From Amoebophrya sp. A120 (taxonomy: Eukaryota > Protista > Dinoflagellata), in the NCBI GenBank assembly GCA_905178155.1, contig CAJINV010000016.1, positions 620,001 through 684,000 of the forward strand: a stretch of 64,000 bases of DNA, written 5' to 3'. The notes under the pieces are model-generated. The model worked only from the letters and a program-made list of their open reading frames with translations. It was not told the DNA's origin and made no database searches. This document shows, piece after piece, positions 1-53,400 of the stretch; the first letter of the stretch is position 1, and every line of letters begins with the position of its first letter. The position numbers and the translations under genes were made by a program.

Positions 1-3000
1 TCAGATCTGTTTAAGAACTGCTTGTGTTGGTCGAAAACCCGTCTCGCGTCGCTACGGAAAGCATTATACGTGTTGCTATTCACGTATTCACTCATCATTT
101 TATTGTTCACAAAACCGAGCTCGCTCGTCAACCCTAACCGCAGGAAAAACCACTCGGAATCGGGTAAGTGCGTTCCGTAGAGTTCCGGATCGGGGGACTC
201 ATCTAGCATAGAAATCAGCGCCTGCAAAAACTTCCCGAGCATGTCCCGAATCTGCACGGAATCCATTACACCGTCTTCCAGCTCGGGTTTGGGGAAAAAG
301 CAGTCTCTCTTGTGGCATTTCAGATCCGTTTCAATATCTTGAATCGGGTCCCGTTTGATCCCCGCCTGGTTCGCGAGATCCTCAATTTCCGGCGGTAACG
401 CGCCGGGCACAGCAGCCAACACCATCGGGTTGAGCTGAATCTTGTGCGCCGCGGTCCTCGCGGCGGGTGGTGACCGGGGGTGTGTCGTAGTCATTTTCGA
501 GGGCGTCGAACTGCTGTGGTACAGGCTCGCACCGGCAACTCCCCGGCGGTGCGCCGGATGCACGGCACCATTATGGGGTAGTGTGGATGAGGGTTGTATC
601 GTAAGGAAAAATCCTCCCTCCCCATATTGAAAAGGTATGTTTCCGGAAATTTGTGTTGCTGATTTGAGATCACAAATCACCTTCGTCGTGCAAGAAGACA
701 AGGGCAGAAGCTTCCGCCCCATTATGGAAGCGATTTGTCATGCTGTTGGGCCTAAAGGGGAGGCGTTTGCCATGCTGAACAACTAGACCCATACGCCCCT
801 ACCTAGCCTGGGGGCCTGGCCGCAGTGCCTCCCTGCAATACAAAGCTGATTTGTGTACACAAACCCAGCATCAGAAGTTCCGTTTTGATATGGGGAGGGG
901 GGATTTTTCCTTTCGATAGGTTGCTCGGGGGGCCCAGCTGCCCCAACTACAGCCCGCGAGGTAGTAGACCGCTGCTGCTGCCCTCGCTCTACTGCCGGCT
1001 GTTGTTCACCTGCAGGCCCGTGCCGCCGGTAGTAGAGTTGCTGCTCTAAAGGGAGGCGCTGCACCCTTTGCGGCATAAAGCTCCTTGGTGGCGCCGCGTG
1101 CGAGAAGATACCCTGGCCTGATTCCTCCTCGTCATCAAAGAGACTCGAAGTTGACCCCCTCTGATACGGCTCGTACGCACGACCTTGGGGACCGCCAGAA
1201 AAAGCTGCACCGCCCCGAGCGAAACCTGCTGAAGCTCCACCTCCCCCGTAGTTCATCGTGTTCACAACTGCTGCACCACCACCAGTTTTCGACCCGCCAA
1301 ACGTTGCTGTCATGACGCCGCCCTCCTGCTTTTTCTGCTTCAAAAAATCGGACTCCATCTTCCGCTTCATGCGTCCCATCATGCGGTTTTTCAACGTGGA
1401 AAAATCCTTGTAGAAGTTCTCCATATCAACTGCAAATATGTCTGGGTCTGGAAGATTGCCAAGCTTGTCATGCATATTCGGCATGGCCCATGGTGCCTGT
1501 AATGCGTGCCCTAGCATCACTGATTTTTAGAGGACTTCCTGATGCCTTTTCCGCATCACAAATGCTCTCTCCACGTAGCACAAAATCGACTCCTCTTGCT
1601 GCTCATGCAATACAGATTTTTTTCCAAATGCAAACACCGCATCACAAGTTGCAACCTTCCAGACCCAGACACTTTTGCAATGCATACTCCACCCCGGTCG
1701 ACGATTCGATCGCGGACCGGATGGAGTCCAGAGTCCCCACAATCACGTATGAAATGCAAATATGTCTGGGTCTGGTAGGATCCGAACTTGTGATGCGTGT
1801 TTCGGATCCTACAAAGATCTGCGATGCATAACGTGCAAAAGGTGCCCACTTCTGGCCATGCTGAGAGGGCACTTCTCATGCAGAATACGCATCACCAAGG
1901 AGCTGCAGAGCCTGTGATGCTAGGCCCTGCATTCCAGACGTGGGGGAGCTTGGAAAAACTGCATGACAAATCTCGGAATCTCCCAGACCCAGACATTTTA
2001 GCATTTGATATCACGTACGATTTGACGAAACTTGGCTCCACTAAAGCGTGAAACACCGGTTTATCGTCGTCGTCCTCGTCCGAATCGAGATCATCGTCCG
2101 TCTCTAACTCCGTGTCGAGTAGGTCGTCTTCGTTCTCCTGGTTATTGTTCCTTGTACCATCGGGAGTGTGACGACCACCACCACTACCTCCTCCGCCATT
2201 AGAACTCAACGCAGACTGACTGGTCGCGGGCGACTGAATTTTTTTCAGATTCGTACTCCCCCCGATCGGAATTTGCAGGCCGAGAACCACAGAGGAGGTG
2301 TGCGTCTCCGTTGGTGTTAAGACGGAACCTCCTTCTTTCAACATACTTTCCCCCGCCGTACTCCCCTTCGGCGTCGTTCTGGGTGTGGTGTTCTTGGAAG
2401 ATTTTTTACTACCTTTTTTACCGCTCTTGTTACCTGTCCAGCCGGAAACCGTGGACTTACTCGACATCAAGTCTTGGTCTTCAGCGTGAGAAAAACCGTT
2501 ACCATCTTCGTCTCCACCAGCGGAGTCGTCTCGGTCGTCTCGCTTCGACGATCTCCGACTGTGAAAAGCCTGTCGCGGCTTCCCGCTGAAGAACGCATCT
2601 GAACCGCCGCGCCAGCAGGCGACGCGGAACTGATAAGAGACAGCTTTGTGGTCGCCGGGGACCCCGGAGGATTGTTCTCTGCGCTTGTAGTTCGGGGTCT
2701 TGGCTTTGATAGCTGACTTTTTCGGAGGTGGAGGTGGGACGGTGGAAGTAGTACCTGCTGCGGTCGCGGCGGGAGTTGTCTTCGCCGTGCTGGCTGCAGC
2801 AGGTTTATGTCCTTCTGGACCACCGTGCTTCGCTTGTCCTGCACTTTTGTTCCCTGCAGCGAAAACCGTTGGGAAGCTTCGTGAAATTTTTGTCGGAGCT
2901 GCTTTACTACCTGTAGCCTGCGGGGGCTTCACGACCGACGCAGCAGTAGTGCCAACACCACCTCGTCCTCCCACAGGCCTGTTCTGCTGCTTGTTAACCT

Positions 3001-6000
3001 CCTGCTCCGCACCCGTGAAAGAAGAACTCTCGTCAATGAACCTCTCCACAGTCGACCAGGTAATCGCGTCAAAAATGTTGCACCGGACCCGTTCGAAGTC
3101 CACCAACCGCACCGCCAACGGCTCGCCTGAAAACTGGTGATTATTACTGTTCGATGTCGTAATCCCGCCGTTTAACAGCAAATGCATCTCCTGCTGATCG
3201 TGCTGCGTGCTTCGATATAGTGGGTTCTTCAAGCCGTTCGCAAAGAACTCGTTGCTGTTCGTCACTGTGGTAGCCCCGGCCAAACTCGCTCGATGTTGCA
3301 AAGCGGTGGAGGAGACGTCAGTCTGGTGGAACAAAGATTCCTGACTCTTATCCACCGCCGTTACAGAGCTCGCGGCAAGCGTATCGGCGGAAGCAAATCT
3401 CGCCGGCATCACCGCGGGGGCGGACCGCTCCAGGATAGTGTTTGCAACCACCGGGTTGTTCCCGAATTTATTGGTTCCACTAAAACTCGGGCGGTACGTC
3501 GTCGTGCTCCCTTGCATCGTGTTGCCGAAGCTCGTCCGCGCCATGGGACTATTCAGCATTTGCTGCAGATCCGAACTATCCACCGTCCCGCCGCGACTTG
3601 GCCTCATTCCCGCGACGAGATTCTCCATGCTCACCCGCGGGTTGTCGAGCAGAGCGGTTAAATCTTCGGAGTTCACCGTGTTGAGCAGGTCATCATTGCT
3701 CACTTTAGTGTTCATATGCCTGGCACGATCCCCGAAAAGCCCGCTGCTGAAGTCCGAACTTGGTAGCTGGACCTGCTGCTCGGGTGGTGGTGGCCCGTTT
3801 GTGACAATCCGGAACACGGTTTCCTTACTGGACTCCAAATCTGCGTAATAAACCCTCGTCTGGCTCACATCCTCGCCAGGCGTCGGGTCTCCGCACATCG
3901 CACGGTCTAAGCTGACGAAGCCCCGGTCGGACTCGTCGAATAGCCGAAGGTACACTTTTCGCACTTTCACCTGATACGTGAATGCTCTGGCTGCGCAACT
4001 CCCATAAGACCCGTACTGCGGAGGTTTGTTTCTGTAACCATGCAGTCCGCCTCCGCCGTGGTGATTTGGTTCCGAGGAAATTTGCGTGGGCGGATACTTG
4101 TGGTGCCCCTTGTCGCTCACAGACGTGCCCGTTTCCGCTTTCCTCTCTAACCGCATTCTCTCCTGCTCCGTTGGGGTTGGTGGCCGGCCGGAGTGAAGTT
4201 TGAAATTTTTTTCGAAGTTCTTGTAGTCCGCCATCTCCTTCGTCATATCCACACTGGTGCAGGGGAGCTCGTTCGCGATCTGCGACCAGAGGGAGGCGGT
4301 TCGGTGGGAAAGGCAGTCCCGCCAGAGCGAAATGAATTTCACTTTGTACCGCAACACCAGAATGTACGGGCCGCGCTCGTCATAGCACACGTGGAAATCT
4401 TCCTCAAGTTTGTAGACTTCCTTACTGGTAAAGTGCTGAAACTGCCGGTCGACGTGGTTCACTCTCGGAATCAGCTCGTTGTGCGACCGGGCAGGCACGT
4501 AGAAAATTTTCTGCTGCGCCATCATCGAAGGTTTCAGCGAAACTGCGACAAATTGGTGTGAAAACAAAGCGCCGGATTTCTTCGCCGCTTGTTCAAACTG
4601 CCCGGACAAAAACGACGAATACAGCAGGTAATTCAACGGGACCCGGAGCAAAATTTCCGTGTTCGAGCCGGGGAACTTATTTGCGCCTCCTTTTTGCCCG
4701 TTTGAAGACAGCGTCGGGCTCAAAGGCGGACTAGAAGTACTACCCGCGGCTTTATTTGCAGCGGCGGCCGCAGCTCTCTGCGCCAGGATGTGTTTCTCCA
4801 CAGCGCCGCGTGTAGTGCCCCCGAGCCACCATTCATGACCCAGGTGAAGATTCGCACCAACACCCCCTAGAAATCCGTTCTTTTCGTTTTTCACGCCGTA
4901 TTTCCAAAAATCGGGGTGGATGTAAAACGCGTAGCGGTGCTCATAGTCTTCCACGGAGGTGGATAAAGAGTTGACGACGAGCCTGATCCTCCCATCGTCT
5001 TCCTTCAGATAGCGGGAAACCGCTTTTGTGTCGACCTGCTTTCGGGAAAATAAATCCAAATCTAGACTGTCGAAAAACGGCTTCGGGTCTTTCAAAAACA
5101 CCGTGTGGTGCAACGATTTCAACTTCTCCGACTCTTGGAGAACAATCGTCTTCGCCTTGTCCTGGAGTTTCGTGTCCATCGTCTGCACCGTGTCGTGCAA
5201 AAACTTGTCAAACCGGTATCGCAGCAACCCGCGGTAGTGCAGCGCTTTCAAGTGTTTCTGCAAGTCTTCGTGCAGAACCCGACCCACTCCAGTGACAAAA
5301 ACCCCGTTCTGGCTTCGTCTGTAAAACGAGCCGAGGAATTCATCCATTCCGAAAAAATCTGTGCACTGGTCGCACTTGTTGTTGAATTTTTCGTTCAATA
5401 ATTTCGCAAAAAAGTCCGCTTTTGGATTATTCTCCCCGGTGAAAAGCCGGTCGGCGATTTGCACGCTGTTTTCCTTCGCAGAATAGCAATACACTTTATT
5501 CGCATAGGACCGCGACCACTTTTTCGTAGAAGTGTCGCGGTTCACGCAGACGGCATCCCCTTCGGGGATATCTTGGAACCCGTTCTGGGGGTAGAGTTGG
5601 CGGAGTTCGTAGCATCGGTATTTGTGCTTCCGCCGCCGGAAGCTGTTAAAAATTTCAAGGAGGAAGTCATTCTCGTAATTGCGATTTAATTTTTCGAGCT
5701 CCGGTTGTATAATCGACTGCGGATTTTGACCAACTTCATGGCGAAGTTCATCTGCTGGGCCAGTTGGACCTTGTTCGTTGTTCGCGTGATCCTGTACCTT
5801 GTCCCTATTTTTCAACCACGTCGGCACGAGCAGCAATTCAGCGAGAATCCACTCATGTTGTTCCAACAATAGCCGCGTCCGCGGAGGTAGTGAGGTCATG
5901 GCGGTCTTTTTGTCTTCGCGCCAAAAAGGACGCAGCTTCTCTGCCCACTATACCATCGCGAGTAATCTTATGCACGACGGCACGGCGGTCGCTAAAAATC

Positions 6001-9000
6001 TCACTCCAGAGCTGGCCTCCATTTGGTTTCGAATCGAAAAACCTTCCCCGCATGCTATGGCCCCGCCAGGGCCCGCGCCAGGGACGGACCCTTGGGAGCC
6101 CCAAATCGGGCCCATAGCATGCGGGTTGGCTTTTTGCTTTCGGCGGACTTTGTTTCTTTGTTTTTTTTTTGGCAAAATGCCGCATCTTCTGGCCTTCAGT
6201 CCGCCTCTGAAGTGGCGGACTTTGGTCGCGTCTTTTGCGAGGCCTGGATGTGGGCCAAAATGAGGCCCATACTATGCGGATTCGCTGTCTTTTTCGGAGT
6301 GCTGCTTTTTGGGCGTCCCTTTTTGGGCGCCCCAAATCGACGGAAACAGATGCGGCGGGCGCCTCAGAAGGGCGCCCCTTTTGCCGGCTCCGCTGCGTCG
6401 TTTTATCAAGCGCGAATCGATAGAATTGGCTCGGGCTTTTTTGACAACAAAGCCCCGGCCGCTTGATAAGTGGGAATCTTTTATGCTCAAAAACACCTCC
6501 GGCCACTTGAAAACTGCCAGTCGTTTTGGATAAGACATGTCAAAAAGATCGCTAGATTAGAACGTTCGTGACCTCACTACATATTACAACCTTCTCCCTG
6601 TTTTTCAACCACGTCGGCACGAGCAGCAATTCAGCGAGAATCCACTCCAGTGCCGTTAGCCAAGGGAGTCAAGTTCAAAAAGCGCGCAAAGTTAGTTCAT
6701 TCAACCAAGACACAGAGCACCAAGCTGTGGCAGGCCGTAGAACCAAAAAAATTTCGCGCGCGCTGCGCGCGCGCATTCACTCACCCCATACGCAGCCAAT
6801 GGCGTTGCATCGATTCGAAGGCAAACGAGCACCACCGCAAGCCCGTTGACTCATCGAAGAAAATTTGAAGTGGCCACTTAAGCCTTCCCTCATCGAAGGA
6901 AAATCGAAGTAACCACTTCAACTCTCCCCCATCGAAGGAAATTTGAGATGGCCACTTCAACTTTCCCTCATCGAAGGAAAACTGACACGACCCCTGCAAC
7001 TTTCCCTCATCGACGGGGAATTGAAATAACCACTTCGACTTTCCCTCATCGAAGGAAATTTGGAGTGGCCATTTCAACTTTCCCGCATCGAAGGAAAATT
7101 GAAACGACCGCTTCAACTCTCCCCCATCGAAGGAAATTTGAAATGCCCACTGTAACTTTCCCCCATCGAAGGAAACTTGAAGCGCCCACTTTAACTTTCC
7201 CTCATCGAAGGAAATTCGAAGTGGCCGCTTCAACTTTCCCTCATCGAAGGAAAATTGAAATGACCATCTCAACTTTCCTTCATCGAAGGAAATTCGAAGT
7301 GCCCACTTGAACCCTCCCTCATCGAGGGAAAATTGAAAAGCCCGCGTGGGGGACACGCATGCAGGAATTTTTAGCCCCCTAGATGCCACCTGTCGGTGGC
7401 CCCCACAACCCTCGGAGCCCTCACCCTCTTCAACATGCCGAGCCTTCCGGCAGCCCTGGCCCAAAAGGAAAAAAAGTGGGGCCGCGCCGGAGGGGGGGGG
7501 GAGCAGGTTCCAAAACGGCCACCCAGAAACGCGGCCATAGCGTGCATTTTGCATGTAATTTTAGAAGGGGCAAAATGAAGGAAAATTATCTTACTCCCTT
7601 CACTTCCTTGGCTCCCTTTCAAGTTTGACTCCCTTGTTTATAAAATGTCCTATTATTCCCTTCTCCCTGTTTTTCAACCACGTCGGCACGAGCAGCAATT
7701 CAGCGAGAATCCACTCATGTTGTGCCAACAATAGCCGCGTCCGCGGAGGTAGTGAGGTCATGGCGGTCTTTTTGTCTTCGCGCCAAAAAGGACGCAGCTT
7801 CTCTGCCCACTATACCATCGCGAGTAATCTTATGCACGACGGCACGGCGGTCGCTAAAAATCTCACTCCAGAGCTGGCCTCCATTTGGTTTCGAATCGAA
7901 AAACCTTCCCCGCATGCTATGGCCCCGCCAGGGCCCGCGCCAGGGACGGACCCTTGGGAGCCCCAAATCGGGCCCATAGCATGCGGGTTGGCTTTTTGCT
8001 TTCGGCGGACTTTGTTTCTTTGTTTTTTTTTTGGCAAAATGCCGCATCTTCTGGCCTTCAGTCCGCCTCTGAAGTGGCGGACTTTGGTCGCGTCTTTTGC
8101 GAGGCCTGGATGTGGGCCAAAATGAGGCCCATACTATGCGGATTCGCTGTCTTTTTCGGAGTGCTGCTTTTTGGGCGTCCCTTTTTGGGCGCCCCAAATC
8201 GACGGAAACAGATGCGGCGGGCGCCTCAGAAGGGCGCCCCTTTTGCCGGCTCCGCTGCGTCGTTTTATCAAGCGCGAATCGATAGAATTGGCTCGGGCTT
8301 TTTTGACAACAAAGCCCCGGCCGCTTGATAAGTGGGAATCTTTTATGCTCAAAAACACCTCCGGCCACTTGAAAACTGCCAGTCGTTTTGGATAAGACAT
8401 GTCAAAAAGATCGCTAGATTAGAACGTTCGTGACCTCACTACATATTACAACCTTTTCCCTGTTTTTCAACCACGTCGGCACGAGCAGCAATTCAGCGAG
8501 AATCCACTCCAGCGCTGTATAACCTGCTCAGCTGTTACAATCTCAAACGTTACAACAGAGTGTGGAAATCTGTGATGCAAGAGTGCATGTTCTAGCCAAT
8601 TCTGATAAGATTGTGCATGACAAGTTCCGGAGTCCCAAACCGCACTACAATCTGGCGAAATTTGTATTGCAGAAAGTGGAACCCTCTGCGAGTCTGTCGT
8701 GCTCATCATGCAGCACAAGTCTCAAATTCTATTGTAACGTTTGAGATTGTAACAGCTGAGCGGGCTATACGCCGTTTCTTCGTTGCTTTCCTTCCTCGGG
8801 AAGTTGAAAACGGAGAAGGTAAGTGTGTTGAAAAGAAAGGTTGAGAACGTGTCGAAAATGGCCGGTTTTTTTCCGGGTTTTGCCGTCGTGGTATCAACAC
8901 TTATTCCTGTTTGTACTTGCGCGGCTTGATGTTCTGTGGCCGTCGCGCCTGGTGTAGTAGTCCCATCTTCTCCTGCAGGCTCTCGTTCTACTTCTGCAAG

Positions 9001-12000
9001 AACCGTTGCATGATCTTCAGCTTGTCCTTCGTCTTCATCCGCGACGATGTTGTCCTCGTGAAGCCCATCAGCTTGCTCCCTTCCCCCGGACGAGGAAAAT
9101 TCCCAACTAGCGGCGTTCGCGATCTGCAACCGCTCTTGCTTGGAAACCCACTGCAATTTTGTCCCGACAAAGTCTCTCGCATTTTGCCACTTGATCAGCG
9201 TGAAAACAAGTTCTAGGAACTCCGCAAGAACCTCCAGTTCGCCTGTCAGTAGGTCCCAAGCAGCGTCAAGGTTTACGCCCCCGGAGGGCAGAGGGGATGG
9301 AGTTGGACTAGCATGTTGCTCCCCCTGTGCAGCTTTGTTCTGCTCGCCATCGTTGCCATCCTCATCTTTCCTCGACACCTCTGTCGCTGCCTCCTGACTT
9401 TGTTCTTCGCCTTTTGTTTTCTGCGCAACTGTGATTTTCGTTTTCAGCTTCGTCCGCGCAGCCTTTATTTTCGCGCTTGCCACCGCGCACTTCCGCAAAT
9501 TTTCGTCTTGAAAGACCTGGGCCTTTGCGTTGGAAATAATCCCAGAGACCCGGGCCCGAAGGTCGGATTGCTCGATTGTGGTGCTGTATTGCAGGGTACC
9601 ACTGTCGGTGGTGGAGAAAAGTTTCGGATAGGCCTTCTCGAGAACTCTAATTGCCTGAGTCAATGGGGAAGGAACGGTCTTTGTACTATGTTCTTGTTCA
9701 GTTTGCTCCGTGACAAGCTTGCGACGCGCCGGCGGCTGCTGCACTCCTTCTCCAGTGCCTGCTGGGTTGACTTTGACATCACTACCTGGCTTTTTACCAG
9801 TTCTCACTACTTCTACCACTCTGGCAGACTTCCTGGCCGCCTCTAGCACGTCTTCCACCTGTTCGATTCTAACCTTCCGGGCGGAATTATAACTGTGGCC
9901 AAGTCCACGTCTTGCACTGCTAGTATAATACGCCCGCCCTGGGAAAATCTTCAAATCCTGCGAGAAAAACCACGGGTCGCGGAGGCCGTGCGAAGACGGG
10001 TTTATTTCGTTTTCCTCGCTTGCAACATCAAACAGCTTCCATTTCTTCCAGTTCTTCTGGAGAAACTGTGCGTCGTCGGACTGGCACAGGAAAAGCAGCA
10101 TTTTTCGGATGTGAAAAATGATGTTTTGCGTGAATTCGTCTAACTCTTTCTCCAACCCCCTTTCGTGCTCGACCCGAAGCATTTGCCTGCCTCCGATGCT
10201 GTTTGACAATCTTTCTGTTCTTTCAACGGTTCTTGTTCCCCCACCTGCTTGCGCTCCTTGTCCTCGTTGCATGATCTTTACTTTCTGCGCCGCCAATAAA
10301 GCTTGTTCCCGTTTCTTCTTCGCTTGCGCTTTCGCGGCTTTACTTTTTGCCTTCACTTGTTTCGCGGACTTCTGCTGGCTTTTTTTCTTCTTCGCCGTAT
10401 TCTGTTCTTTAATCGTACTCGCGATGTCGACAGTTTCTTGCATGTACTGCTGCAATTTTCGAAATCCCGTCAAGTACTCCTTCAGGGCTTCCACCCGCGG
10501 CACCGCGATTCGCAAGAACTTGCTACTTCCAAGGTTTTTGGCGTCACGAAACGGAGCGAAATTATTGTCCACCCCAGCATCCCTGTCATGCAGTTCAGCA
10601 TGTGCAGCCGAAGTGGTCTCTTCATCAACAACATAAATTCCACCCAACCTCTCCGACACCTGCACCAATTCCCCGATCGACTTTCTTGGTAAGTGAAACT
10701 TCAAGAAGTGCAACTCGTCCAAAAAGTTCCGCTGCTCGCGCTGCAGGTACGCCAGCAAGGCGTATAGCGGAATCAGCAGTAGAAATACCATCAAGCTGAC
10801 TCCTATAACCCCGGGCCGCGCCTCCATCACGAGCTGCTTTCTAGTAACTTTTAGTACCTCCTTTGGACGATCATCTGCCTTCTTCGAAGAGCCTCGGAGT
10901 AGGTCGGACGCCCGAGCGCCTCGCTCTTGTTCCCGTGAGGCGTTCTTGTTGCCAAGATTTTCCAGGTCGTCGGGATCTTCGGGGCCGTGGCCGTTTTGAT
11001 AACTATCGTGCAACACACCGAGAAGGTAGTCCGAGTCGAGAATGCGATTCAGCTCCCACTGCAGAAGAGCCGCAGAGTTGCTGGGGTCCTCGGTATTGTC
11101 TATTTCTCCATTGTCCTCAGGAGGGGCAGAGGTGTAGTTGTGGCTTTGGAGATAAGTTTTGTCGTCGCTATTGTTCTTCCCTTCTGCTGCTCCCGCGAGA
11201 AAGTTCTTCCGGCCACGTCTCAACTCCTTCGAGGGGCCCCAAAAATTTTCGCCTGGATCATAGCTACCGTACTCCAAGTCGCCTAAAGACCCGTTATTTG
11301 GTATTTTTGCCAGCGCGGCCGCGGAAGAAAAATCTGCATCCGACAAATCTTCGCTTGGGGTCGGCTGCAATTGCCTGTTCATTGCTGCCAAGCAAAAATG
11401 CTGCTCCACAGCATCATGATTACCCCTTCTAAAGGGGTTATTTGCCGTGAGAAACTCGATTCCCTTCTCATCTTCCGGTTGCAGGAGTGGCTGATTTTTA
11501 GTTGTACTACCAAGACCCCATTTGTCTTGCATACCTGGCTCTGCACGGCCTTCTTGTTCTTCTTCACATGGCACGTCGATCAGTACGTGGTCCGGCTTGC
11601 TTTGTTCCTCGTCCTCAAACTCTGTCTTATCCGAACCCTCCGTGCTGGAGCTGGAGTCTGAATCCATTTCTGCGTCTGGAATTTTGATAAAATCATCTGG
11701 AGCGCAGTTTTGATTTTCATAGTCGGAGGACATGCGTCCTCTCGGTCCGCTCCTATGTAGTTCGCTTACTTTCCGATGACATTTTTCAGCCTTCTCCGAG
11801 AAATTATCTGGCGGGAGTAGCAGCTCCTTCTTGTTTGATGCACTTACGTTGCTCAACACATCTGCTGATCCTTCTGCCGGAAGGGGGGACGTCGAGCCAG
11901 ACGCGCGAGACGAGCCTTTGTTAAGTCTTTCATCCGCTGGAGCCACTAGTTCTTCACCATGCTCAACAACATCATCTCCCGGCTGCTGCTTCATCTCTGC

Positions 12001-14905: not shown

Positions 14906-15161
14906 TGGAGAAGCGAGAGGGGAACTAGGAGCGTATTGTGGTGGAAATCACGATCAGTAGCGTTGGGTCTAATGAGATTGTCGTAAATCAGAAACATGCC
15001 TAACCACGACATCCCCCACCAGACACTTTCAACACATGAAATAATTACTGATATCTGGCGTCAGTTCGATTTCTGTTGAAGACCGTAGTCTGTCCTCGCA
15101 TGTTCAATTATATCTCAGGAGACATATAACGAAGTCAGCACCATATTTTTCACCATCAGAC

Positions 15162-27740: not shown

Positions 27741-27879
27741 CGGGTAGTGCCGTGCGGCGCTCGTCGGGCGAGAAAGACGGTGGGGGAGCTGTTGGTGTTT
27801 TAGGGTTTTGGAGTTTCATCGGGAAAAGAACTTGTTTTCGTGGAATCAACCTAAGCCGCGCGTGAAACCAGGGCAAAGT

Positions 27880-35600: not shown

Positions 35601-35944
35601 GCCAAATCGGGCGCCGCGAGTTGAAAGAAGTGGTAGCGGCGGCGCCGCAATATCCAACCCCGTGCAGCGCTTGGAAGCTGCAGCGCAAGCGGAAGCGCTT
35701 TAGAAAATCTCATACACGGCTTCTCTCTTCAGAAAGCATGCGAACCGGCCGAGATCGCGAAATAAATAGCCAAGCGCAGAGAGCTACCCGAAGATCACAC
35801 TTTTGGCGTTCTTCTTTCGTTTGTTTTTGTGGGTGGACTTTGACTGTCCGAAAACGAAATTAATACGTAAAAGATCTTCTACCATGTGAAGAAAATCGAC
35901 GACAAAGAGATCTCGGACATCAATCTACCTTGTTCTTCAACCTC

Positions 35945-42110: not shown

Positions 42111-45100
42111 ATGCACAAGTACAAGCTGCTTTCGAAGAAGGGTGAGGGTACCTTTTCCGAGGTGCTGAAATCCCAGTCAATAAAAACCGGACGGTACGTA
42201 TCCTTAGTGAAAACGTCCTCACCCCAGAGTTGTCGTGCAAGTTTCGATGCCCACAACGTTTTTGTAGTGCGCAGCAACATGAGAGGTTTTTTCCCATGGT
42301 GTTTTGCAATTTGTCATGCTATTATCAGGATCAGGTAAGTAGTAGTTTTCTGATGCGGCTGCACCAGCTAAGCTGCACTGCACTACAGAGAGAAACTTCT
42401 CATGCGCGACTCCCAAAGCTTCTGGTTTTCTGTTGCACATTCCCCATCTTCACTACAGGGTGGGGACGTTTTTACTCAGGATAGTGCGTGGCCATAAAAT
42501 GCATGAAGAACCGGTTCGAGTCCATCGATCAGGTCAACAACCTGAGGGAAATCCAGGCGTTGAGGAGGTTACAGGGCCACGCAAATATTATCCACAGTGA
42601 AGATTTTTTTCCGTACACGAACTTCCTTGCACATGCGATGATGATGATGATGATGAAAAACAAAGCTGTGTTTGTTTACCAACCAGATTTGACATGATTG
42701 TACCGGTTGGCAAAAATTTGTGATGCATTTTGCAAGAGTGCGGCAAATTTCTACTGCATAAATATCATCACACTCCACGAAGTGCTGTATGACGAACCAA
42801 CGGGGCGACTAGCACTGGTCTTTGAGTTGATGGACATGAACCTCTACGAGCTGATCAGGGGGAGAAGGTAATTTGTGTTGCAAGAAATGCGACCTGTAAC
42901 CCGATTTGTCTTGCATTAATGGAGAACTACTGAAGATAAAACACTAACTTACTATCTATCAGGCACTACGTTCCGGAAGAGAAAGTGAGAACGTTCATGC
43001 GATCACTACTACGCGCTCTGGATCACATGCACCGAAACGGGATTTTCCATCGAGACGTGAAGCCAGAAAACTTGCTGCTGCAGGAAGACACCCTGAAATT
43101 AGCAGACTTAGGGAGTTGTCGAGGTGAAAAGTAGTTTTATTTTTTGCGATCATGATGTTCTTGCATAGGTGCAGAGCGCATGACAAAAATCCATAGAATT
43201 TGTCTTGCATTTATTGTACTATGATGCAAATATTATTTAACTCGCAGGTATATATTCCCGACCACCCTACACGGAATACATCAGTACAAGGTGGTATCGT
43301 GCACCCGAGTGTCTTATGCATTGCAAAAATGTCTGGGTCTGGAAGGATGCAACTTGTCATGCTAAGTCTGGATAGTACAAAAATTTGTGTTGCATGATTA
43401 CCAAAAGGTGTCCACGTTTGAACAAGATTAGCGGCAGTTTGTCATGCAGGACAGACATGATAGAGACTTCGCAGAACCTCTCATGCTAGGTGCTGCATTG
43501 CAGACCTCGGGGGGCATGAAAAACATGCATGGCAAGTTTGCATTCTTCCAGACCCAGACATTTTTACATTTGATATGTCTGCTTACAGACGGATTCTACT
43601 CCTACAAAATGGACCTCTTCGCGGCGGGGTGTGTGTGGTTCGAGGTATGATTTAAAGTACATTTTTCTTCGGTAAAAATATAATTTTTGTATACCGCAAC
43701 AAACATTTTGATCCGCTTGAAATGAAATTCCTTCTCGCAGCATGATGCACCAACATGAGATTTGTTTTCGGTTAAAAAGAAAAAACCTGCTCCCCCACAG
43801 GTTATGGCTCTGTTCCCGCTGTTCCCCGGGCAAAATGAGATGGATCAGCTGCAGAAAATACACGGCATTCTCGGCACGCCGAACGAGGAGGTGCTGCGAA
43901 AATTCAAGCTCAATTCCGATGTGGCCTTTCCGGAAAAGAAGGGCACGGGGATCGACCACTTGATACCCCACGCGAGTTTGGACGTGTTATCCGTGCTGAA
44001 AAAGTTACTGCGATACGACCCGGAGGAAAGAATAACAGCGAGGCACGGGTATAAGTATGGATGAATTTTGTCATGCAGAGCGTGCAGTAGAAAACTTCGT
44101 GGTGGACGGATTCAAACAGTATTCAAAATTTATCATGCGCAAAATCTGGGAATGATGGAATGCTTGTTTATGCACCGAATTAATATACCAACACACATGA
44201 TCACCCAGGTTGCTTTCCCCCTACTTCGAAGAGGTCCCAGAGCGCACGGTGCCACTGCACACGAACAGCATCGAGCAAGCACCGACGAGCACATTCTGTA
44301 TTCATAAACTCTTATTTGCTCTATGTATGTTGTATGCATCAGAAGTGATGTCTGTCATGCGGGAGCGACAGTCCTATACGACAATCCTATATTTGAAAAC
44401 AAACCATCAGATCGCACGGGCGGTAACCAGTCCACGGTGTCAGACAACCACGATACAGACCGACACCACGAAAGCACACACCATGCTATCACCGGGATAG
44501 TTTTTGAAAATTTGTAAATGCATAATCGGTTTTAATATTGCATGATGGCATTATTGTTAATTGAGGAAACCACAAGGACAACCAGGATAATTCCATGGAA
44601 AGTACTCATCATTTTATGCATTATGCATTACAGAAAAACTGTCCAAATTTTCATATCCACAAAGGACCAGGCGCAGGCGAAAACAAATCTCCCACCAATC
44701 CATGCCAAGAACTACGAAAGAGAAGAATCTGACACTCGGAGTCAATTGTAGGTACTAGGCCTCTCTGCCAAAAAGGTTTGTAGTCCTCTCCATTGATGCA
44801 CGAAAGGATGAAACACATCGCAAAAATTGACTCCAATCCGAGTTTCTGTTGCATACTTGCCAAACCAAGCACATGAAGCCGTTTAAGTTCAAACCGAAGA
44901 ACTTCGGGTTGCACAGTACCATGAGCGGGTTCGGGGGGAACTACGGGATATCCAGTGTAAAAGTATCGAAGTCGCTCGTACTACACTAGTTGCAATTTCA
45001 TTCGTGACAGAAGTGTGTTGCGGTTTCTGAATTATCCGCATGTCAATTTTCATTTTTCGTTTTGGAAAATGAATTTCTCCAATTCGTATGAATGCAATTG

Positions 45101-45223
45101 ATTGTACTGCAAGTGCGATACTTTTGCAATGCATACGGGAACACCGGTGGCAATGCGTACCTGTCCGGAATGAACGCAACGATGCACAAATCCAAGTTCT
45201 TCAAGAAGAGCAGCATGCGATAA
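42111..45223 (+). CDS. MOK: MOK/RAGE (LF4-like) CMGC Ser/Thr protein kinase; mixed GT-AG and IR introns
   Basis: [97 protein letters not shown]; GT-AG introns 42868-42962, 43124-43247, 43645-43800, 44049-44208; C-terminal exons less certain. Confidence 0.93.
42199..42483. mobile_element. IR-intron family B
   Basis: DR gtacg/gtgcg; GRY|VAIK. Confidence 0.92.
42589..42760. mobile_element. Degenerate IR intron
   Basis: DR aatat/aatat; HANI|ITLHEV. Confidence 0.85.
43315..43575. mobile_element. IR-intron family A
   Basis: DR tgtct/tgtct; splits APECL|LTDG. Confidence 0.95.
44949..45135. mobile_element. IR-intron family C
   Basis: DR cggga/cggga. Confidence 0.85.
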
Positions 45224-47431
45224 TTGTCCGGGGGCTTTTGCATCACAGATTTGGAGGACACTGTCTTGCTTGTTCGTCTAAAACGCTAGTCGTGTCACAG
45301 TACTACGTAATGTGATGAACAGAGTGATTTTATTCACGATTTTATCAAGCAAAAACCTGTACTTACGATGGAGAATAGTCAGTCTCGCACGACACTGCTC
45401 ATGACACGTGCTTTGGAAGCGTCGAACATCAATCGTCGAGACTCGAACTCCTCAATGCTATCTCAGAAACGCAAGAAAATTCCGTGTGAAAACCTATAAC
45501 ACCAATATAGTCTTCTGACAATCGTATTCGTCAATATTATGGAAAAATCAATCGAATTTGCAATGCCAAACTCAGAAACGCTTTTAATTAATCCACAAGA
45601 TGTTAACGCGACCTATACCTCTAGTACGGACATATCAAAACCTGAAACTTTATTCTGACACTTCACCAAGAGGAAACAAGTAATAGCCTAAAAGCTTAAA
45701 CTCTTATAGCTCACGCTTTGTAACCTATGATCTTCTTCGCCACGGCCGTGGGGTCTTAGCCGTAGCAAGATAAAAACCTATGCAATAAATCACGCTTGTT
45801 CTAAAGCCTGGCACGCTGTTGTAGTACTTGTACTTACTTCTACCCAAGAAGATATCTATACCACTCGAGTTCAGCATCAAAGTGCAAGTGGTAGGAAAGT
45901 TTTTGCTAGCAGCAACAGGAGTGTCGGAGTGCTTGCTTCTAGAACTTCGATCAAATAATGGACACTTGGATCATGAAAACGCAGAAACGTATACAACTCG
46001 CGACAGAGGAGAAGGCGTAAGATATGGCACTTCAACTCGAGGACATTAGGTGTGACGTCCGGTCGCTGAGCTGTCGGAAAAAAAGAACTTCTTCACGAAG
46101 ACTAATGATCCAAACACTTCTTCTAATGCGCGGCGATTTAATATCGAAAAGGAGGAAAGAAATAACGCGAGGTGACCACGAACTGCTTCTGCTGCTGTGA
46201 TGTAGTTGTTGTGTATACAAGAGTTTTGGAAAGTTAGAAATCTCAGGGCCTGGAGTTCTGTACAGATCTGCCTGCAACAACCCTGCGGCAGAAGTTGCAA
46301 GGCTTTCTGGATACAGGCGCGCAACTACCTGGTGAACACGATGCGAGTCAGCTGGTTGTTTCGTGCGGGTTTATCAAAAATCTTGTGTTCGTCTTCCCCG
46401 ATGTGTGGTCCTCACGTTGATGTCTAACTGGTTTTAATGTTCTCGTTGTTTGAAAAGGAATTGCTGTTCTTGATGCTGCTCGCAAAATATGATCCTAGCC
46501 GACCTGCGTTTCGTGCGGAAGGTAACATCAAGCTTGTTGAACTTTGAAATCGCTCGTCCTGGTCAACGAAACAAGAAGACGATCCCAAGGTGGTTGTAAA
46601 CGCTGGTTAAGAATTGCGCGGTTCTGTACGAACAATCAAAATTTCTACCATTGTAAAGAAGGCTACGGCGCAACAAGGCAAATGAGAATTGCACTGCTCT
46701 AGACTTTTGCGAGGAATGCAGTTCTTTCACTGCAAAAAAAATGACCACCTCGTCCAGAGAAGGGGAAAAGCAGATCCAGCCAGTTGGGGTGGGTCGCGTG
46801 GCCGTCCTCGGTTCTTGCGCGGCACGAACAAAAATGCGCTTCTCCCAAAAGAACCGCGGCCCAAGTATCCGGGGGAGGACCGGGGAAAGGCAGACGAAAC
46901 CGCTCAGAGCTAGATCAAGTGGTGACGTAATGTTCACTGCATTACGACGGTAAAAAGAGGAAAGCAGAGTTGTACAAAGACCACCGCCGGCGGAGCATAA
47001 TGATGAGCGGAAATAAGACCACCAGCACCGCCAAGGACCGTAGTCTGCTGTGGTCGCTCCGCGGTGCGGCGGTTATTTCTGCGTGTCACAAAAGGTGGAG
47101 AAGGAGATCATCATCGTGGGCACAAAAAAAGCGGCTCCTTTTGGGGCGGTGCGACAGGGAGGTATTCTTTCACGTTGGTGTCGAGACAACCGGGGATCCA
47201 GACAAAAAATATTCAGCGGCGCAAATAAGCCGCGATGCACCGGCGGAGCTTTCGCCGCAGTCACCAAGTGAGCCACGAATTATACGAAAGACAAGAAGAA
47301 GCAGAAGTCGCATCAGGGATAAACTGGTTCGTTTTCCTGGTTCTCTTCGATTATACACGCTTGTAGCTGCACCGGGCAGGAGGGTCAAAGAGCATCAAGG
47401 ACGACGAGAGCTACCACCCGCAGCGACCACC

Positions 47432-50400
47432 ATGGGGACGCTGCAAGAGCACGTGCGAAATTGTACTGGCGGAGGTCAACACCACCACCACCACCATCGC
47501 AAAAGGCAGCTACGAGGGAAGGTCGGCTCTTTGTTACCAGGGAGAGCTAGTACCAGCGACGTCTTGGTCTACTCGAGGACGAAATTAGCTCTACTACTAG
47601 TCGCGGCCTTTGCAGCTGCGGCGCTTGTGCTACTGCGAGGCAGCTTTTCTTTGTTCGCGTTTCTCGGCTTCGGACCGCCCCCTCCACAATATCCGCGAAA
47701 AAACGCCTCGTCGACCTTCTTCTTCGCCGACGCCAAGCGGCTTCGGCTCGGGCGGCGGGCACGGGGTTCAACATACTATTCAAAACCGGGAAAGACAGGT
47801 GGACCTGACCCCTTTTTCAACTTTCTGGCGGACGCACAGATGCGCACCCTGCTGGAGGAGGACGGCAAATTACCTCCGCGCCGTATCCTGGGTGTAAAAT
47901 AAACGTAGCTGCCGTTTCCCCAGTCTTGATGTCATGCAAATCTGCATTAGTATGGTATCCAGAAGGTGTCTCATACGCAGTCCCATGACCACAAGCATTT
48001 TCTAATGCTGTTTGCCTTTATTTGTCTTTGTCATTCTCTAATCAGGATTTAATTCGTATTGCGGCCACGCTGGCCAAGCCCCACTCTAGTGCTCGGGAAA
48101 GCCGAACTTTGTCATGCCAAAGCCCTAAAGCTGCTTCATTTGTGTCCTGCAGATTGTTTTGTACCTCGTAAGAGTACTTCTTTATTACACAGGATACGCG
48201 CGTCACCAAGTGGGTGCGTCGAGCAGACCAGCGATGCGCGTTTGAAGAAGATGCTAGATGAGAAGGACAAGTGGCGCAACAGTATGCCTGAGGGCTTCTG
48301 GACGGTCGACGCGCGGCAGGTGGACGGCATCAAGATCGGATATGGATGTGTCAGAGTTGAAATCGACAAAGTTGAAATAATTTGTCATGCATAAAACGGA
48401 TACCAGTTATGCCTACAGTTTGTAGTCGATGCATGACAAATCTTCCCGGTCCTGGAAGCGTGTCTGTCATGCGGTTTAGGGCAAAAGACCTGCCTTCTGT
48501 CATGCTAGTCAGAAGTCCAACTTTTGACCCTTACCAGGACCATAATCTGCCTCCCGTGCGTCCTCTCCAATAGAGTCACTTTTTGTGTCGCATTTTATGC
48601 ATGACAAATCATTTCAACTTTGACGATTTCAATCCTGACAGTTCCACATCGGACTGGAAGCGGAGGTCCGCGCGACCACAAAGTCGCGCAAGCTGAAGCT
48701 GAGTTCGGTGACCATTCCCACCTGCGCGTTTGCCACCCCCACGAAGCTGTACTGCCTGGCGCAGGTGGATGTGAAGCGCTCGACCAACTACGCCAAGAAT
48801 GTGGATTTCGTGCGGTCTTTGTATCTGATCGAGTACAACGACCGGTGTGGGCCTTTTTTGACCGGTAATCCTAGGGATGCCGCGAAGGGCAGGCCGGGTG
48901 ATAAACCGCTCACTTCTTTCACGAGCGGCGACGAGAAAGTGCAGCATTTTGGGCGCAACGCGCCGCTGGGGCGGAGCGGGAAAATCCTTGGGGGGTCCGA
49001 CACTTCGGAGGATCCTCTTTCGCGCGGTGGAGAAAACCCGGACTCGCTGGGCCCGACCGGTGCGGCCGGTCCGGACGGCGCCAAGTGGATTTTTGACTGC
49101 GCAAAGATGACCGAGTTCCGCTTTTCCTCCATCCAGCGGAGCCCCGGGGAGCCTATGCACAGGAAACAAATAGGTTTTTGTGTCTGGAAAGGTGTTGTTG
49201 TCATGCTAAATCCTAAACCCCAAACAGATTTTACAGTAGTTAGCAGTGCATGAACAGTTTTTGGAAAGGGAATCCTGTGTTTTGCATGGGACGGAGCGCA
49301 TTTTTGTAAGAAGTACATACAAGCGACACGACCCTTTCGCCACATGCATCCCAACCCTCTACGGCCGTGTCAACAGCAGGCAGGCACTACAAAATCTCGA
49401 ATCCTCCAGATGAACACCAGACCACATACTTGCAAATTTCATATCCCCGGAGGGTGTGCGCTTCGAAAACAAGGGTTCCTTCCGGTGCGAATCGTGGGGC
49501 GAGGTGATCCGGGCGTGCGCCCACTGCAACACACTGTTTCGCCGGATGACCTTCCGCACCGCGAACATGCCGACTTTTACGGGCAGCTTGATTACCGGAT
49601 TGCATTACAACACGCTTCCGCGCTTGGCCCCCGCGCGGTCGGAGGACGGCCGGTTTTTGCTCGCGTGGCTCCCCCGCGAGCGGTCCCTGATCGGGTGGCA
49701 GTCCACCCGCGGGTGGAAACTGATCTGGAAAACGCGGCCGATATCCCGTGTAAAAACGTGTTTATCCCAGAGTTGTCATGCAGATTTGCAATGACAAAAA
49801 CATTTGTGATGCGCGTCCCCATGACAGGCATTTTTATTTCCAATCGTGTCTTGGAATTTGTAATGCTGTAAACAGGATAGGCAGCTGGATTTGTAATGCT
49901 GGCGTCCTTGCTAACCTGCACTACGCTACGGACTGCAACTTGTCATGCGTGACTCCCAAAACTTCTAGGTTTGTGGTGCAAAATCCCCACTATCTTGCCT
50001 CGGGGGTGGGGACGTTTTTGCTCAGGATAGCCGAGTGAGAAGATTCAGATCGTGCGCATGAGTCTGGTCGGTTCCAAAAAGGAGATGGTGTGGCTTGTGT
50101 CTTTGTACATCAACAATTCTCCGCACATTCTCCACTTCGAACCCTACGTGTGGCTGACGGAACATTGGGACCGGTTTTTGGACCTGGAGTGCATCAACTT
50201 TCCCTCGGAGTACCTGCAGCAGAGCCAGGGCGCCGCCGCTGCCTCGGGAGGTGGTGGTGCAGGTGGTAACGCCGCGGGAATAAACGGCGGTAGTAGCAGT
50301 GGCTACAGGCTGAGCGGGAGCAAGTATTGGGAGCGTTTTGGCGAGTATTACGAGTGCGCGAAGAGCTCGCACGCGGTCACGGACTTCAAGGATTTCCTGC

Positions 50401-53400
50401 GACAGCAGTCTGTATGGATTGCAAAAATGTCTGGGTCTGGAAGGATGCGAACTTGTCATGCGTGTTGCGGATCATACAAAAATCTGTGTTGCATGACTTG
50501 CAAAAGGTCGCCATTTCTGGCCATGCTGAGAGGGCATTTCTCATGCAGAAAAGGCATCACCAAGGGGCTGCAGAACCTGTGATGCTATCCCCTGCATTCC
50601 AGCCTTGGTGGAGCTTGGAAAAACTGCATGACAAATCTCGGAATCTTCCCGACCCAGACATATTTGCATTCCATAGTCTGCGTTTGCTAACAAGCGCCGC
50701 ATCGAGGCGCACAACTTCAAGCGTATGTAGTGCAAAACTAGTACAACTATCGTACTCATTGCATGACGACCGATCATCTGGTTTTTCTAAATGCTATTAC
50801 GAACGACACACAAGAAGGTCCATTCTTCCTCTCGGAAAAAAAATGTGAATAACTTTATGCCACGTACATCTAGTAGTACGAAAGCTTTTGGTTTTTTCAG
50901 ATGCATAAGGCCCGTGTTGCTGCAGAACGCGTGCCAGCAGCTGCAGCGGGCGTACGACTGCCAGTTGGAGCGGCCGTGCAGTTTCTTCAAGGATCCGAGG
51001 CTGCTGAAGGCCCCCCCGAAAGTGATGGACCCCGAGTTTCGGTTTGCGGAGTCTATGCCGTCTATGTCCATTCTGAAGCCGAAAGAGGAACTGGCAAGCC
51101 CGCGACGAGGCGGTGGAGCTCGTGCCCGAACCACGACGGCGATGTTGCCCCCCCAGATGACGGGAGCGCAGACCGGAATAAGTGGAGGACCACCTCCACC
51201 TGCAGCGCAAATAGAAACACCACCTGCAGCGCAACAGGAAAATAATGGGGCGAACGTCAACGGCGCTGTGGACGCGTCTCTTCCCGACGCGGGAGATGCT
51301 GGTGACCTATCAATTACAAATATGTCTGGGTCTGGAAAGCTGCAAGATTTGTCATGCATCTCGGGGACCACGACGCACATGGTGTGCAATGCACACGAAA
51401 GCATCAGAGATTGTGCGAGACCTACCCCATGCCTATCCCGTATGAGAAATCCGCGTTTTGTCCAGCAAGAAGTGTGCAACTTTTGGTCTTTATGCTATAC
51501 AGATTTCTTTGTGCTTGAGACTTTATATTTGCAATGCATACGACCAGCAGACGAGCGAGCTACAGATGGAACAGGAAGGCTTCGAGGAAGCGAATGAAGT
51601 GGGGAAAAAGTCGTGGTCACAAAAGGAAGTCAATCGCGCGACGGAAGGGGCCGCGCCTGATAAAGTAGGTGCAAACGTCGAAAATGATCGTGCCCCGTCG
51701 ATAGCAGGAGAAGCTTCGGGTGGTCCAACTGTTACACCGTCTGCTATACACGACAATGAAGACGAGGAATTTGTGGAAGAGCTGACGGATTTGCTGAGGG
51801 AGTTTGAGAAACACCAGCGTCCTCCGGTCGTAGGGAACACGAACGGTGAGCAGGGTCGTACAGAAGCTGCAGCTGGCTCTTCATTTATCCAAGACAGCTA
51901 CTTCGCTGCGCCCGACGAGCTGCCCCAATCGACTTCCGCCGCGGCGCATATGGAAGCGTCAGGACCGAAATCAACAAAATCGAAATAACTTGTGATGCAA
52001 ACAATCGATACCAGTCGGAGCCTGAGTTTCGAAGTGGTGCATGACAAATTTCGGGATCACCATAATCCAGTCTGTCATGCTGTTTGGGCAAAGAAGACCA
52101 CTCCTGTCATGCTACTCGGGCAGCGCATCACTTTCCCCTAAACAGGCTCACAATCGGCCTCATTTGCCTGCTCCCCAACACAGGCCATACGTGCCCTACA
52201 TTTTATGCATTACAAGTTTTTCGATTCTGTCGATCTCGATCCTGACATTCCCATAGCGCAGTTTCGTGAGTGCATGGAGGCCTCGCAGGAGCTGCACTGC
52301 AACTTCCAGTATCAAATGCAAAAATGTCTGGGTCTGGAAGATTGGAACACTTGTCATGCACATTTTGCATGAACGATTATGACTGTACTGCATGACCTAG
52401 CATCAGAGATTTTACGAGGGCTTCCTGATGCCTATACCGCATGAGGAATACCCCCTCGGCGTAGCATAAACTGGACTCCTCTTGCGCCCTCAGCAATACA
52501 AATTTTTTTTGAGTCCAAAGACAGCATGACAAGTTCCATCCTCCCAGACTCAGACACTTTTGCATTTGATATCCAGTCCTTGCTGCCCAACATTCAAATC
52601 CGCGACGTGGAATTGCTCCGCCCGAAGAGCCACAACCGCTATCTGGAGCACAAAAAGGACTTCTTCAAGAAGTACCAAATGCGGAAGCTGCAGGTGCAAA
52701 CCTCTGCCGGTCCGAACAAAGGAGCTTCATCCAGTGGGGCGGATGACTTCGAGCACGGCCACGGCCGCAGGGACGCGGACGGTGCGGAACTCGATGATCC
52801 GACGGAAGATAGCCGCAATAAGGAAACCGACATCCGTCAGGCCTCCGTGCATCCGTCCCGGATCGATACGAGCTGTACGTTATCAAATGCAAATATGTAT
52901 GGGTCTGGAAAGATGCGCGGTTTGTCATGCTTGGCTAACATGGCGGGTATGGTGGGGGCGAGAGGCATGTATGAGTTTTGCGATGTATTGGCAGAAATAC
53001 ATCGCAAAACTCATACATCATACATGGAAGATTTGCGGAGAGCGCGACGGTTTCCGTGTACGATGTACAATGTATGAGGTGCAATACATCAATGTGCAAC
53101 CCAATCTCATACATCGTACATCATACATTGTACACGGTCCAGTGTATGATGTGCGATGTCTGATACATTGTGCATTGATGTATCATACATTGTACATCAA
53201 TGCACGATGTATGACATTGATGTATCGTACATCGTACATTGATGTATCGTACATCGTGCATTGATGTATCATACATCGTACATTGATGCACTGTACATGA
53301 TACACGGCACAAACATTGATGTACTGTACATGATACATGGTACATTGTACATTGTACACTGGCTGCAAGTCGGGGCCGCAGATGCGGCTCCGCTCGGACC

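Follow-up and report, generated by a model that had tools for sequence, protein, structure and literature searches.

Introner elements of the marine parasite Amoebophrya sp. A120 have been described as non-canonical introns of about 240 nt belonging to many families, with inverted repeats starting with TAT, a downstream A-run and direct repeats of 3-5 nt (5 bp in the legend of Fig. S19), according to the portions of the genome paper drawn on here (Farhat et al. 2021, PMC7789003). In the same portions, non-canonical introns account for >60% of Amoebophrya introns and their boundaries are marked as unknown, T occupies +2 in 9/9 predominant A120 non-canonical motifs (Table S4), and the components detected in A120 include U2, U4, U5, U6 and most proteins of the spliceosome but not U1; an analysis of element orientation was not found in the passages of main text and supplement that were searched.

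Introners inserted in either orientation, with GT/GC/GA donors, are known from Polarella glacialis and Aureococcus anophagefferens, as far as the excerpts used here extend (10.1101/2020.10.14.339549). They resemble the A120 elements in being transposon-derived and two-way and in building splice sites from an element end plus the target duplication (10.1101/2020.10.14.339549; Huff 2016 via PMC10228655), but they have GT/GC/GA donors, AG-type acceptors in the examples described and an orientation bias, whereas in the elements studied here neither +1 nor the last two bases are constrained and family A shows no bias. The nonconventional introns of Euglena share complementary triplets at a fixed distance from the cuts, junctional direct repeats and a proposed MITE origin (PMC12501133, PMC3935182); their triplets, however, are CAG/CTG rather than TAT/ATA, their spacers 3 and 5-6 rather than 1 and 4, and the purine they need as first base of the next exon is free here; the elements studied read N-TAT...ATA-N4|N and not N3CDG...CH'GN5-6|R. 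In Fritillaria and diplonemids, too, a U2 spliceosome is retained alongside introns that lack GT-AG and whose ends are paired or inverted, but in the parts of those reports considered here the ends are AG-AC/AG-AT and G/C-rich, respectively, unlike TAT/ATA (PMC11282704, PMC12621601).

Neither the A120 elements nor introners that occur in either orientation are in themselves new. The elements of the 64,000-nt stretch of A120 DNA analysed here (the window) have in common with those of PMC7789003, as described in the portions cited, the TAT inverted repeats, the A-run and the direct repeats, and the public protein P0001, which matches one host gene, is labelled A120; they differ in that the splice position, variable or unknown in the Fig. 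3 legend of that paper, is here fixed and polar.

Elements, host genes and orientation

The window holds 57 TAT…ATA elements with 5-nt direct repeats, exact at 37/57; TAT begins 55/57, and the A-run is conserved (44, 50 and 54 of the 57 have A at element positions 11, 12 and 13, respectively). Five families comprise 39 elements and the other 18 are singletons. Of the window elements, 31 combine an exact repeat with a length of 140-340 nt and arms matching at ≥12/20, a combination that none of 50 block shuffles produced; reading the flanks as a 4-nt repeat with a spacer was given up in favour of the 5-nt repeat. The copies at 1748 and 50413 both have exact repeats and TAT...ATA ends. With a direct repeat of 3-5 nt, a TAT-starting inverted repeat and repeated families all present, these are the introner elements of Farhat et al. 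(2021), and they probably derive from small cut-and-paste transposons. An Rfam search of the window gave 0 matches, family A had no match among viral contigs, and no orthologous locus, which could bear on an empty ancestral site, was found among 155 loci of a second assembly.

Excising each element with 5 nt gave long open frames in every gene tested (Table 1). On the minus strand, removal of 597, 1424 and 1748 (+5 nt each) leaves 1664 stop-free codons (longest plus frame, 167), and 1748 left in place brings in 14 stops. On the plus strand, removal of 26 elements and one GT-AG intron from 46931-63100 leaves 2158 stop-free codons, and the frame is broken if any single one of the 26 is kept; a single RNA-type contig of 9160 nt starts at 46666 and extends past 62859, which agrees with one plus gene. 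The reads placed lie outside 1-35999; the minus-strand genes, including that of 1748, are supported by reading frame (one also by a Pfam TTL match), and so is element 63398, which lies past the listed pieces. A Pfam scan of four frames left 3/4 without a match, the host gene of 1748 had neither a Pfam match nor a detected relative, and relatives looked for with the 1895-5947 frame were not found. The protein kinase is one that we take to be MOK/MAK-like.

Table 1. Host genes, elements and introns of the window, in order of position
Feature	Positions	Strand	Observation
Host gene of 1748	1..16885	-	4099 stop-free codons once 7 elements and block 5855-8509 are removed
Family A element, same gene as 1748, other orientation, 61 nt away	1424..1686	-	Frame
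Family A element, repeat TCACG	1748..2010	-	Predicted intron 1744-2011; opposite to 50413 relative to transcript; frame only
Tubulin-tyrosine-ligase-family gene	21935..27815	-	11 elements, family A facing both ways; 2 GT-AG introns; Pfam TTL match
Family A element, opposite to 50413	36679..36930	+	Joint seen in X1 and X3
Intron with unrelated flanks	37216..37389	+	Exact cut GTAT...ATACGCA, fixes -1/+4 register
Protein kinase gene	42110..45225	+	403 codons; 5 elements, one GC-AG/ACA+4 intron, 5 GT-AG introns
Family A element, oriented as 50413	43315..43575	+	Joint seen in X1 and X3
Long host gene	46931..63745	+	At least 2158 codons; P0001 matches first 1392 residues from start Met
Family B intron	47883..48200	+	Exact -1/+4 cut (the second), by contig arithmetic
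Family B element, repeat GCCGA	49742..50029	+	Exact sum over 8 introns
Family A element, repeat GTCTG	50413..50675	+	Predicted intron 50412-50679
Family A element, repeat TCCAG, opposite to 50413	52310..52571	+	
Family A element, unmatched flanks GTACG/CTCGG	57952..58213	+	
Family B element, opposite to 49742	58290..58574	+	Pieces of X1 and X2 pick up again at 58575
Family B element, opposite to 49742	58739..59017	+	Pieces stop at 58732; exact sum over five introns
Family A element, oriented as 50413	59717..59978	+	
Family D element, in the reverse orientation of 48341 and 51949	60729..61017	+	Skipped in X1 and X2
Family A element, oriented as 50413	61523..61786	+	Skipped in X1 and X2
Intron with same-length GT..AG placement (62036-62324) available, unused	62039..62327	+	X1 and X2 contigs
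Family A element, opposite to 50413	63398..63659	+	Frame only

The initial annotation had proposed that these introns are removable either way round, and this is borne out by the frames that open on excision and by RNA-type contigs that skip copies of both orientations. Orientations were called from interiors with the inverted ends trimmed, with 0/100 inconsistent edges in family A and 0/41 in family B. The copies at 1748 and 50413 have 231/263 nt in common on the + strand and 176/263 when sense strands are compared, and frame analysis places their hosts on opposite strands, as had been claimed; the trimmed interiors also reproduce the two family A groups within the plus gene (50413/59717/61523 vs 52310/57952/63398) and those of family B (49742 vs 58290/58739). 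A count relative to the host transcript, which the annotation had called for genome-wide, gives 12 vs 8 for family A, 8 vs 3 for family B and 2 vs 1 for family D in the window. In the second assembly, where 241 elements were found and 182 strand-called, family A shows no orientation bias (56 vs 48, p=0.49) in a sample of 155 loci that comes from one partial scan (16/64 parts) and is skewed to young copies of this family; the strand caller was right for 41 of the 57 window elements, wrong for 1 and silent for 15, with training overlap. The element at 57952 is not a clean example and lies outside the fit of the model: across 56704-58575 the RNA contig is 315 nt longer than the window predicts, P0001 departs from the frame at this element, and a collapse of two copies with loss of a 315-nt exon stretch is possible.

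Register of the cut and terminal bases

The RNA nature of the contigs X1-X3 is a guess, and the register junctions come, as contigs, from one RNA sample; the raw-read run X7 contributed 2 reads. At 9/9 junctions whose repeat copies differ at positions 2-4, and which are thereby informative, the upstream copy was kept and the cut fits N|TAT…ATA-NNNN| in transcript direction (-1/+4; p=0.002 if the cut tracked element orientation); two of them are exact (37217, 47884) and two compatible with two positions, all nine lie in plus-strand genes, and no single family supplied discriminating cases in both orientations. P0001 retains the same upstream copy at 5/5 informative junctions. The cut is therefore asymmetric and follows the transcript, not the orientation of the element. 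The mRNA is restored exactly because the 1+4 nt of flank equal the 5-nt duplication. In the literature searched, the -1/+4 register was not found.

Ordinary signals fit these introns poorly. Across six registers a GT/GC..AG placement is possible in 5/57 elements, and at 62040 the X1 and X2 contigs bypass a GT..AG placement of the same length; the RNA joints impossible as GT/GC-AG match N-TA[TC]...A[TCG][AG]NNNN in 14/14 cases, with a chance of 1.3% each, under a rule formulated after the joints had been inspected. Several candidate cases were dropped: 50724, considered as a case of an ignored AG, since an equivalent register allows it to be read as GC..AG; 14934 and 15740, where other GY-AG placements also keep the frame; and 59108, where GT..AG is possible. 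In the last 60 nt, the motif yTRAy occurs on the sense strand in 23 of the 57 elements and on the antisense strand in 22, without sense-strand enrichment, so that the polar branch-point motif named beforehand as a counter-observation does not appear in conventional form. The view that ordinary U1/U2 definition is inadequate stands; the view that recognition must be symmetric does not: whichever way an element faces, its inverted ends offer identical 5' and 3' sequence, and the cut is asymmetric.

The bases +2T, +3A and -7A are each present in 57/57 window elements, and the bases preceding -7A vary between families. The mirror positions of +2U, +3A and -7A do vary, the six terminal deviations of the window being TAC (twice), ACA (twice), AGA and ATG. 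Among 139 strand-called copies of the second assembly the deviations are TAC (three), ATG (two), ACA and ATC, and 7/7 fall on the side predicted (p=0.008), three being on strands called minus. The two sets together give 13 deviations, a small number, from scans tolerating limited deviation. TAC and ACA break the stem and wobble-compatible mirror changes were never seen, which suggests that +3A and -7A are recognized by their sequence. The element signals are polar but self-complementary. A drift to G at +1 (5/6 in the window) was not replicated in the second assembly (2/5), where perfect-repeat copies show no preference for G at +1 (34/141). The 5' triplet of the elements recurs at +2..+4 in the GT-AG donor used locally; 6/8 GT-AG introns of the window begin with GTAT.

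Proposed removal by a modified spliceosome and other explanations

At a probability of roughly one half, our results suggest that the elements are small TIR transposons that a modified spliceosome removes from the RNA with a fixed cut, restoring the mRNA exactly. TAT...ATA transposons would insert into exons, either way round, with a 5-nt target duplication; the modified spliceosome would read U-A at intron +2/+3 as donor and A at -7 as the predicted branch point, and would join the exon 7 nt beyond the branch A with no requirement for AG. Both signals would be on the transcript in each orientation, because TAT and ATA are reverse complements and each copy thus shows both either way. A short code reading alike on both strands is likely, and the putative spliceosomal chemistry would most likely involve branching at -7A. 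More tentatively, at somewhat less than even odds, the A120 spliceosome may work without U1 or AG recognition, reading a code that is its own complement, N|UA(U)...A(UA)NNNN|, with the branch at a fixed A that lies seven bases from the 3' end and a counted acceptor. If so, any TAT-ended transposon with a 5-nt duplication would become a traceless intron in either orientation, and such a code would account for tens of thousands of intron gains. The fixed, transcript-polar register and the three invariant bases offer a testable handle on splicing and a rule for correcting gene models, and the tolerance of two-way insertion could be explained without symmetric or DNA-level recognition.

A non-spliceosomal RNA pathway that recognizes the stem end, placing its cuts 1 nt ahead of it and 4 nt beyond it in the manner proposed for the Euglena introns, has perhaps a minority chance. 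It would suit the predicted folds, in which the ends of both the 50413 and the 1748 copy are paired (z -7.3 and -7.9) and terminal pairing exceeds 0.3 in 46/54 elements, the Euglena code of a fixed spacer with complementary triplets (PMC12501133), the lack of +1 G and AG, an undetected U1, and the seeming rarity of hybrid ends, 44485-44665 excepted. Nevertheless, the observed terminal changes break pairs, sense-strand G.U is not preferred in arm mismatches (47 vs 43), the 5' triplet is identical to that of the local GT-AG donor, and the 8/54 elements with predicted terminal pairing ≤0.3 include 42589, 44713 and 58290, which are skipped in RNA. A strict requirement for a long stem is improbable, and the terminal stem may have a helper role. 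This pathway is the rival nearest to the stem idea of the initial annotation.

It is improbable that an ordinary spliceosome relies on polar signals of the conventional kind concealed within the element on both strands, such as the repeated TTGTCATGC/GCATGACAA motif as a branch site, with loose ends. This motif does occur on both strands at 7.9 per kb here, against 6.1 in GT-AG introns and 0.4 in exons, and two-way introners with ordinary ends exist, in the excerpts used (10.1101/2020.10.14.339549), but 52/57 ends are not GT-AG, the available GT..AG at 62040 is unused, and several skipped elements have no motif copy on the relevant strand. Excision from DNA before transcription, as for ciliate internal eliminated sequences, would fit the transposon anatomy and the exactly restored target site but is very improbable and is not supported: X5 contigs (depth 43-47) run through whole elements and flanks (56271-57788 and 61759-63425), some RNA-type contigs retain an element (57074-57327), and the register tracks the transcript.

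A bulge-helix-bulge (tRNA-type) intron has a 4-bp exon-intron helix between two 3-nt bulges; this type was rejected, the 4 nt on either side of the elements being direct repeats and not complements, with 0 matches in Rfam. At a stray acceptor in an X2 contig (56989), A stands at -7 as well.

Orientation of the elements and their removal

The window, which is eukaryotic, contains 57 elements of 143-2764 nt that start with TAT, end with ATA and are flanked by 5-nt direct repeats (exact in 37/57), a set obtained by scanning for inverted ends and direct repeats and then adding by hand decayed copies needed for open frames; the family A copy at 18295, whose host gene was not rebuilt, and 63746, which reaches the window end, were left out. 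The strict form of the pattern occurred 31 times, compared with 0 in 50 shuffles. The elements themselves have already been described, and their anatomy agrees with that of the A120 introner elements in the consulted sections of Farhat et al. (2021, PMC7789003).

Orientation was called from interiors with the inverted ends trimmed away, which align in a single direction only. Every element orientation given in the initial annotation proved correct, including the same-facing position on the + strand of the closely related family A copies 1748-2010 and 50413-50675 (231/263 nt in common). Relative to the transcript, the two directions were represented by 12 vs 8 copies in family A, 8 vs 3 in family B and 2 vs 1 in family D; a family of 3 copies and another of 2 each faced one way only, and 18 further copies had no family. 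In a second assembly (155 loci from a scan of 16 of 64 parts, biased to young family A copies), family A gave 56 vs 48 among 104 strand-called copies (p=0.49). Intron formation in either orientation has been reported for Polarella and Aureococcus (10.1101/2020.10.14.339549, in the part consulted) and by Huff 2016, as cited in an excerpt of PMC10228655. Among papers open without subscription, the accessed portions of PMC9860276, PMC12130899, PMC11453091, PMC12005148, PMC3935182, PMC13326754, PMC12621601 and PMC11282704 contained neither a count of orientations nor a register of the cut for A120; Figs 3, S19 and S23 of Farhat et al. and the PMC12130899 datasets could contain part of this.

Both orientations occur and both are removed, as the initial annotation had observed. 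The putative RNA contig sets X1-X3, all from one sample, gave 15 listed and 11 further unlisted joints across 36000-52870 and contiguous pieces across 55400-64000.

Elements of families A, B and D with direct joints or piece ends, by start coordinate
Family	One orientation	Other orientation	Contig sets examined
A	43315, 61523	36679, 51308, 56707	X1-X3
B	37681, 42199	58290, 58739	X1-X3
D	48341, 51949	60729	X1-X3

In one 9160-nt contig the predicted length was removed exactly in 7/8 intervals, among them 4631 nt across 8 introns including 49742, 50413 and 52310, and 1340 nt across 5 introns including 58739 and 59717. The exception lies at 57952: across 56704-58575 the contig exceeds the window prediction by 315 nt, P0001 (a public protein matching the long plus-strand gene) drops out of frame with its public gene model shortened there, and the flanks of 57952-58213 do not match each other. 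Possibly, two copies were collapsed in the assembly and an in-frame exon stretch was lost, which would account for all three anomalies.

Deletion of each element with 5 nt yielded 1664 stop-free codons on the minus strand (1-5857) and 2158 on the plus strand (46931-63100), and retention of any single element breaks the frame concerned; the outcome was the same for a TTL-family gene, a kinase gene and two other genes. For 1748 and 63398, it is the reading frame that argues for removal. Over 1392 residues and 16 junctions the reconstructed product equals P0001, which is labelled Amoebophrya sp. A120 and is 100% identical to the long plus-gene product; P0001 is a gene model that may derive from related RNA and hence is not an independent check.

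A fixed cut that follows the transcript

At junctions with unequal repeat copies, the surviving copy can be read from the contig. Upstream repeat positions 1-3 or 1-4 were retained in 9/9 junctions separating the two mirror registers, all in plus-strand genes (p=0.002 under a register tied to element orientation), and 37217 and 47884 place the exact cut 1 nt ahead of TAT and 4 nt beyond ATA in the transcript direction (-1/+4). Among 20 joints, 5 could be read as GT-AG only and 1 either way, and the remaining 14/14 fit this rule, which was formulated after the joints had been seen. In this register +2T, +3A and -7A are invariant in 57/57 elements, while the first dinucleotides vary (GT 24, AT 14, CT 13, TT 6) and the last are scattered, with AG in 4. 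The consulted part of Table S4 of Farhat et al. (PMC7789003) agrees, with T second in 9/9 predominant A120 motifs. Terminal deviations were confined to +4, -6 and -5, with 6 in the window and again 7/7 in the second assembly, where 139 copies with a called strand were compared.

The initial annotation had proposed symmetric recognition, by stem or at the DNA level, instead of ordinary splice-site definition. This was partly supported: a GT..AG placement of the same length at 62040 is present and unused, which favors non-ordinary recognition, whereas the cut is polar and removal at the DNA level is unlikely.

Candidate mechanisms

A modified spliceosome is our main reading, with a probability of about 0.5. 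It is favored by the 5' triplet of the elements, which is identical to positions +2..+4 of the GTAT donor seen in 6/8 local GT-AG introns. The signals would be short and polar, each by coincidence the reverse complement of the other, and because of this the inverted ends could supply them in either orientation, the invariant A near the 3' end being a suitable predicted branch point. Some protists and group II introns have a short, fixed spacing between branch point and acceptor; a literature search on this gave no match. The finding that A120 keeps U2, U4, U5 and U6, with U1 not found (Farhat et al., PMC7789003, in the sections consulted), was also counted toward a modified spliceosome. Sense-strand excess was seen neither for yTRAy (23 vs 22 of 57 elements), a polar branch-point motif being what the initial annotation had named as contrary evidence, nor for G.U pairing between the arms (47 vs 43); predicted terminal pairing was alike on both strands (p=0.54), and G at +1 was not preferred in the second assembly.

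The main rival, a possible one, is a non-spliceosomal pathway that measures the stem, as proposed for Euglena (PMC12501133, in part). Both 1748 and 50413 are predicted to fold with their ends paired; the predicted terminal stem is missing in 8/54 elements, the deviations TAC and ACA disrupt it, and mirror changes able to keep a G.U pair were not seen among the terminal deviations of the window and the second assembly. Removal at the DNA level is unlikely, as X5 contigs (depth 43-47, library type not on record) run continuously across whole elements with flanks and some putative RNA contigs retain an element, though X5 joints were assessed among those listed and a rare joined DNA form may exist.

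Other features of the window

The motif T[TC][GC]T[CGA][AT]TGC (TTGTCATGC type), counted on both strands, reaches 7.9 per kb in element introns and 6.1 in GT-AG introns, compared with 0.4 in exons and 0.7 elsewhere; it often lies 31-43 nt from the ends in unrelated families and could represent either a site for the transposase or a mark of introns. The elements 30112-31120, 37681-39384 and 52881-55644 have grown to 1.0-2.8 kb through nested insertions and tandem repeats and are still taken out whole (37681 by observed joint, 52881 by length sum). Related inserts of ~740 nt with sub-terminal inverted repeats occur at 5858-6590, 7720-8450 and 30350-31090, one copy being nested within element 30112, and the short region 18140-19330 holds more intron-like stretches besides the family A copy 18295.

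At 56706-56989, a single X2 contig is joined at an acceptor that lies 9 nt further upstream, 4 nt past an ATG, and this creates a stop. Around the kinase frame, putative RNA contigs reach ~0.9-1 kb further on either side (41220-42110, 45225-46241, 46666-47000) as long untranslated regions without elements. The 2655-nt block at 5809-8509, in which a 46-nt exon piece is repeated four times with an 850-nt internal duplication, is not of the TAT/ATA type and may be a spliced stretch or an assembly effect; removing 5855-8509 fuses two minus frames into 4099 codons. At 27880-28480, an array of 26-28-nt repeats separates two minus-strand genes.
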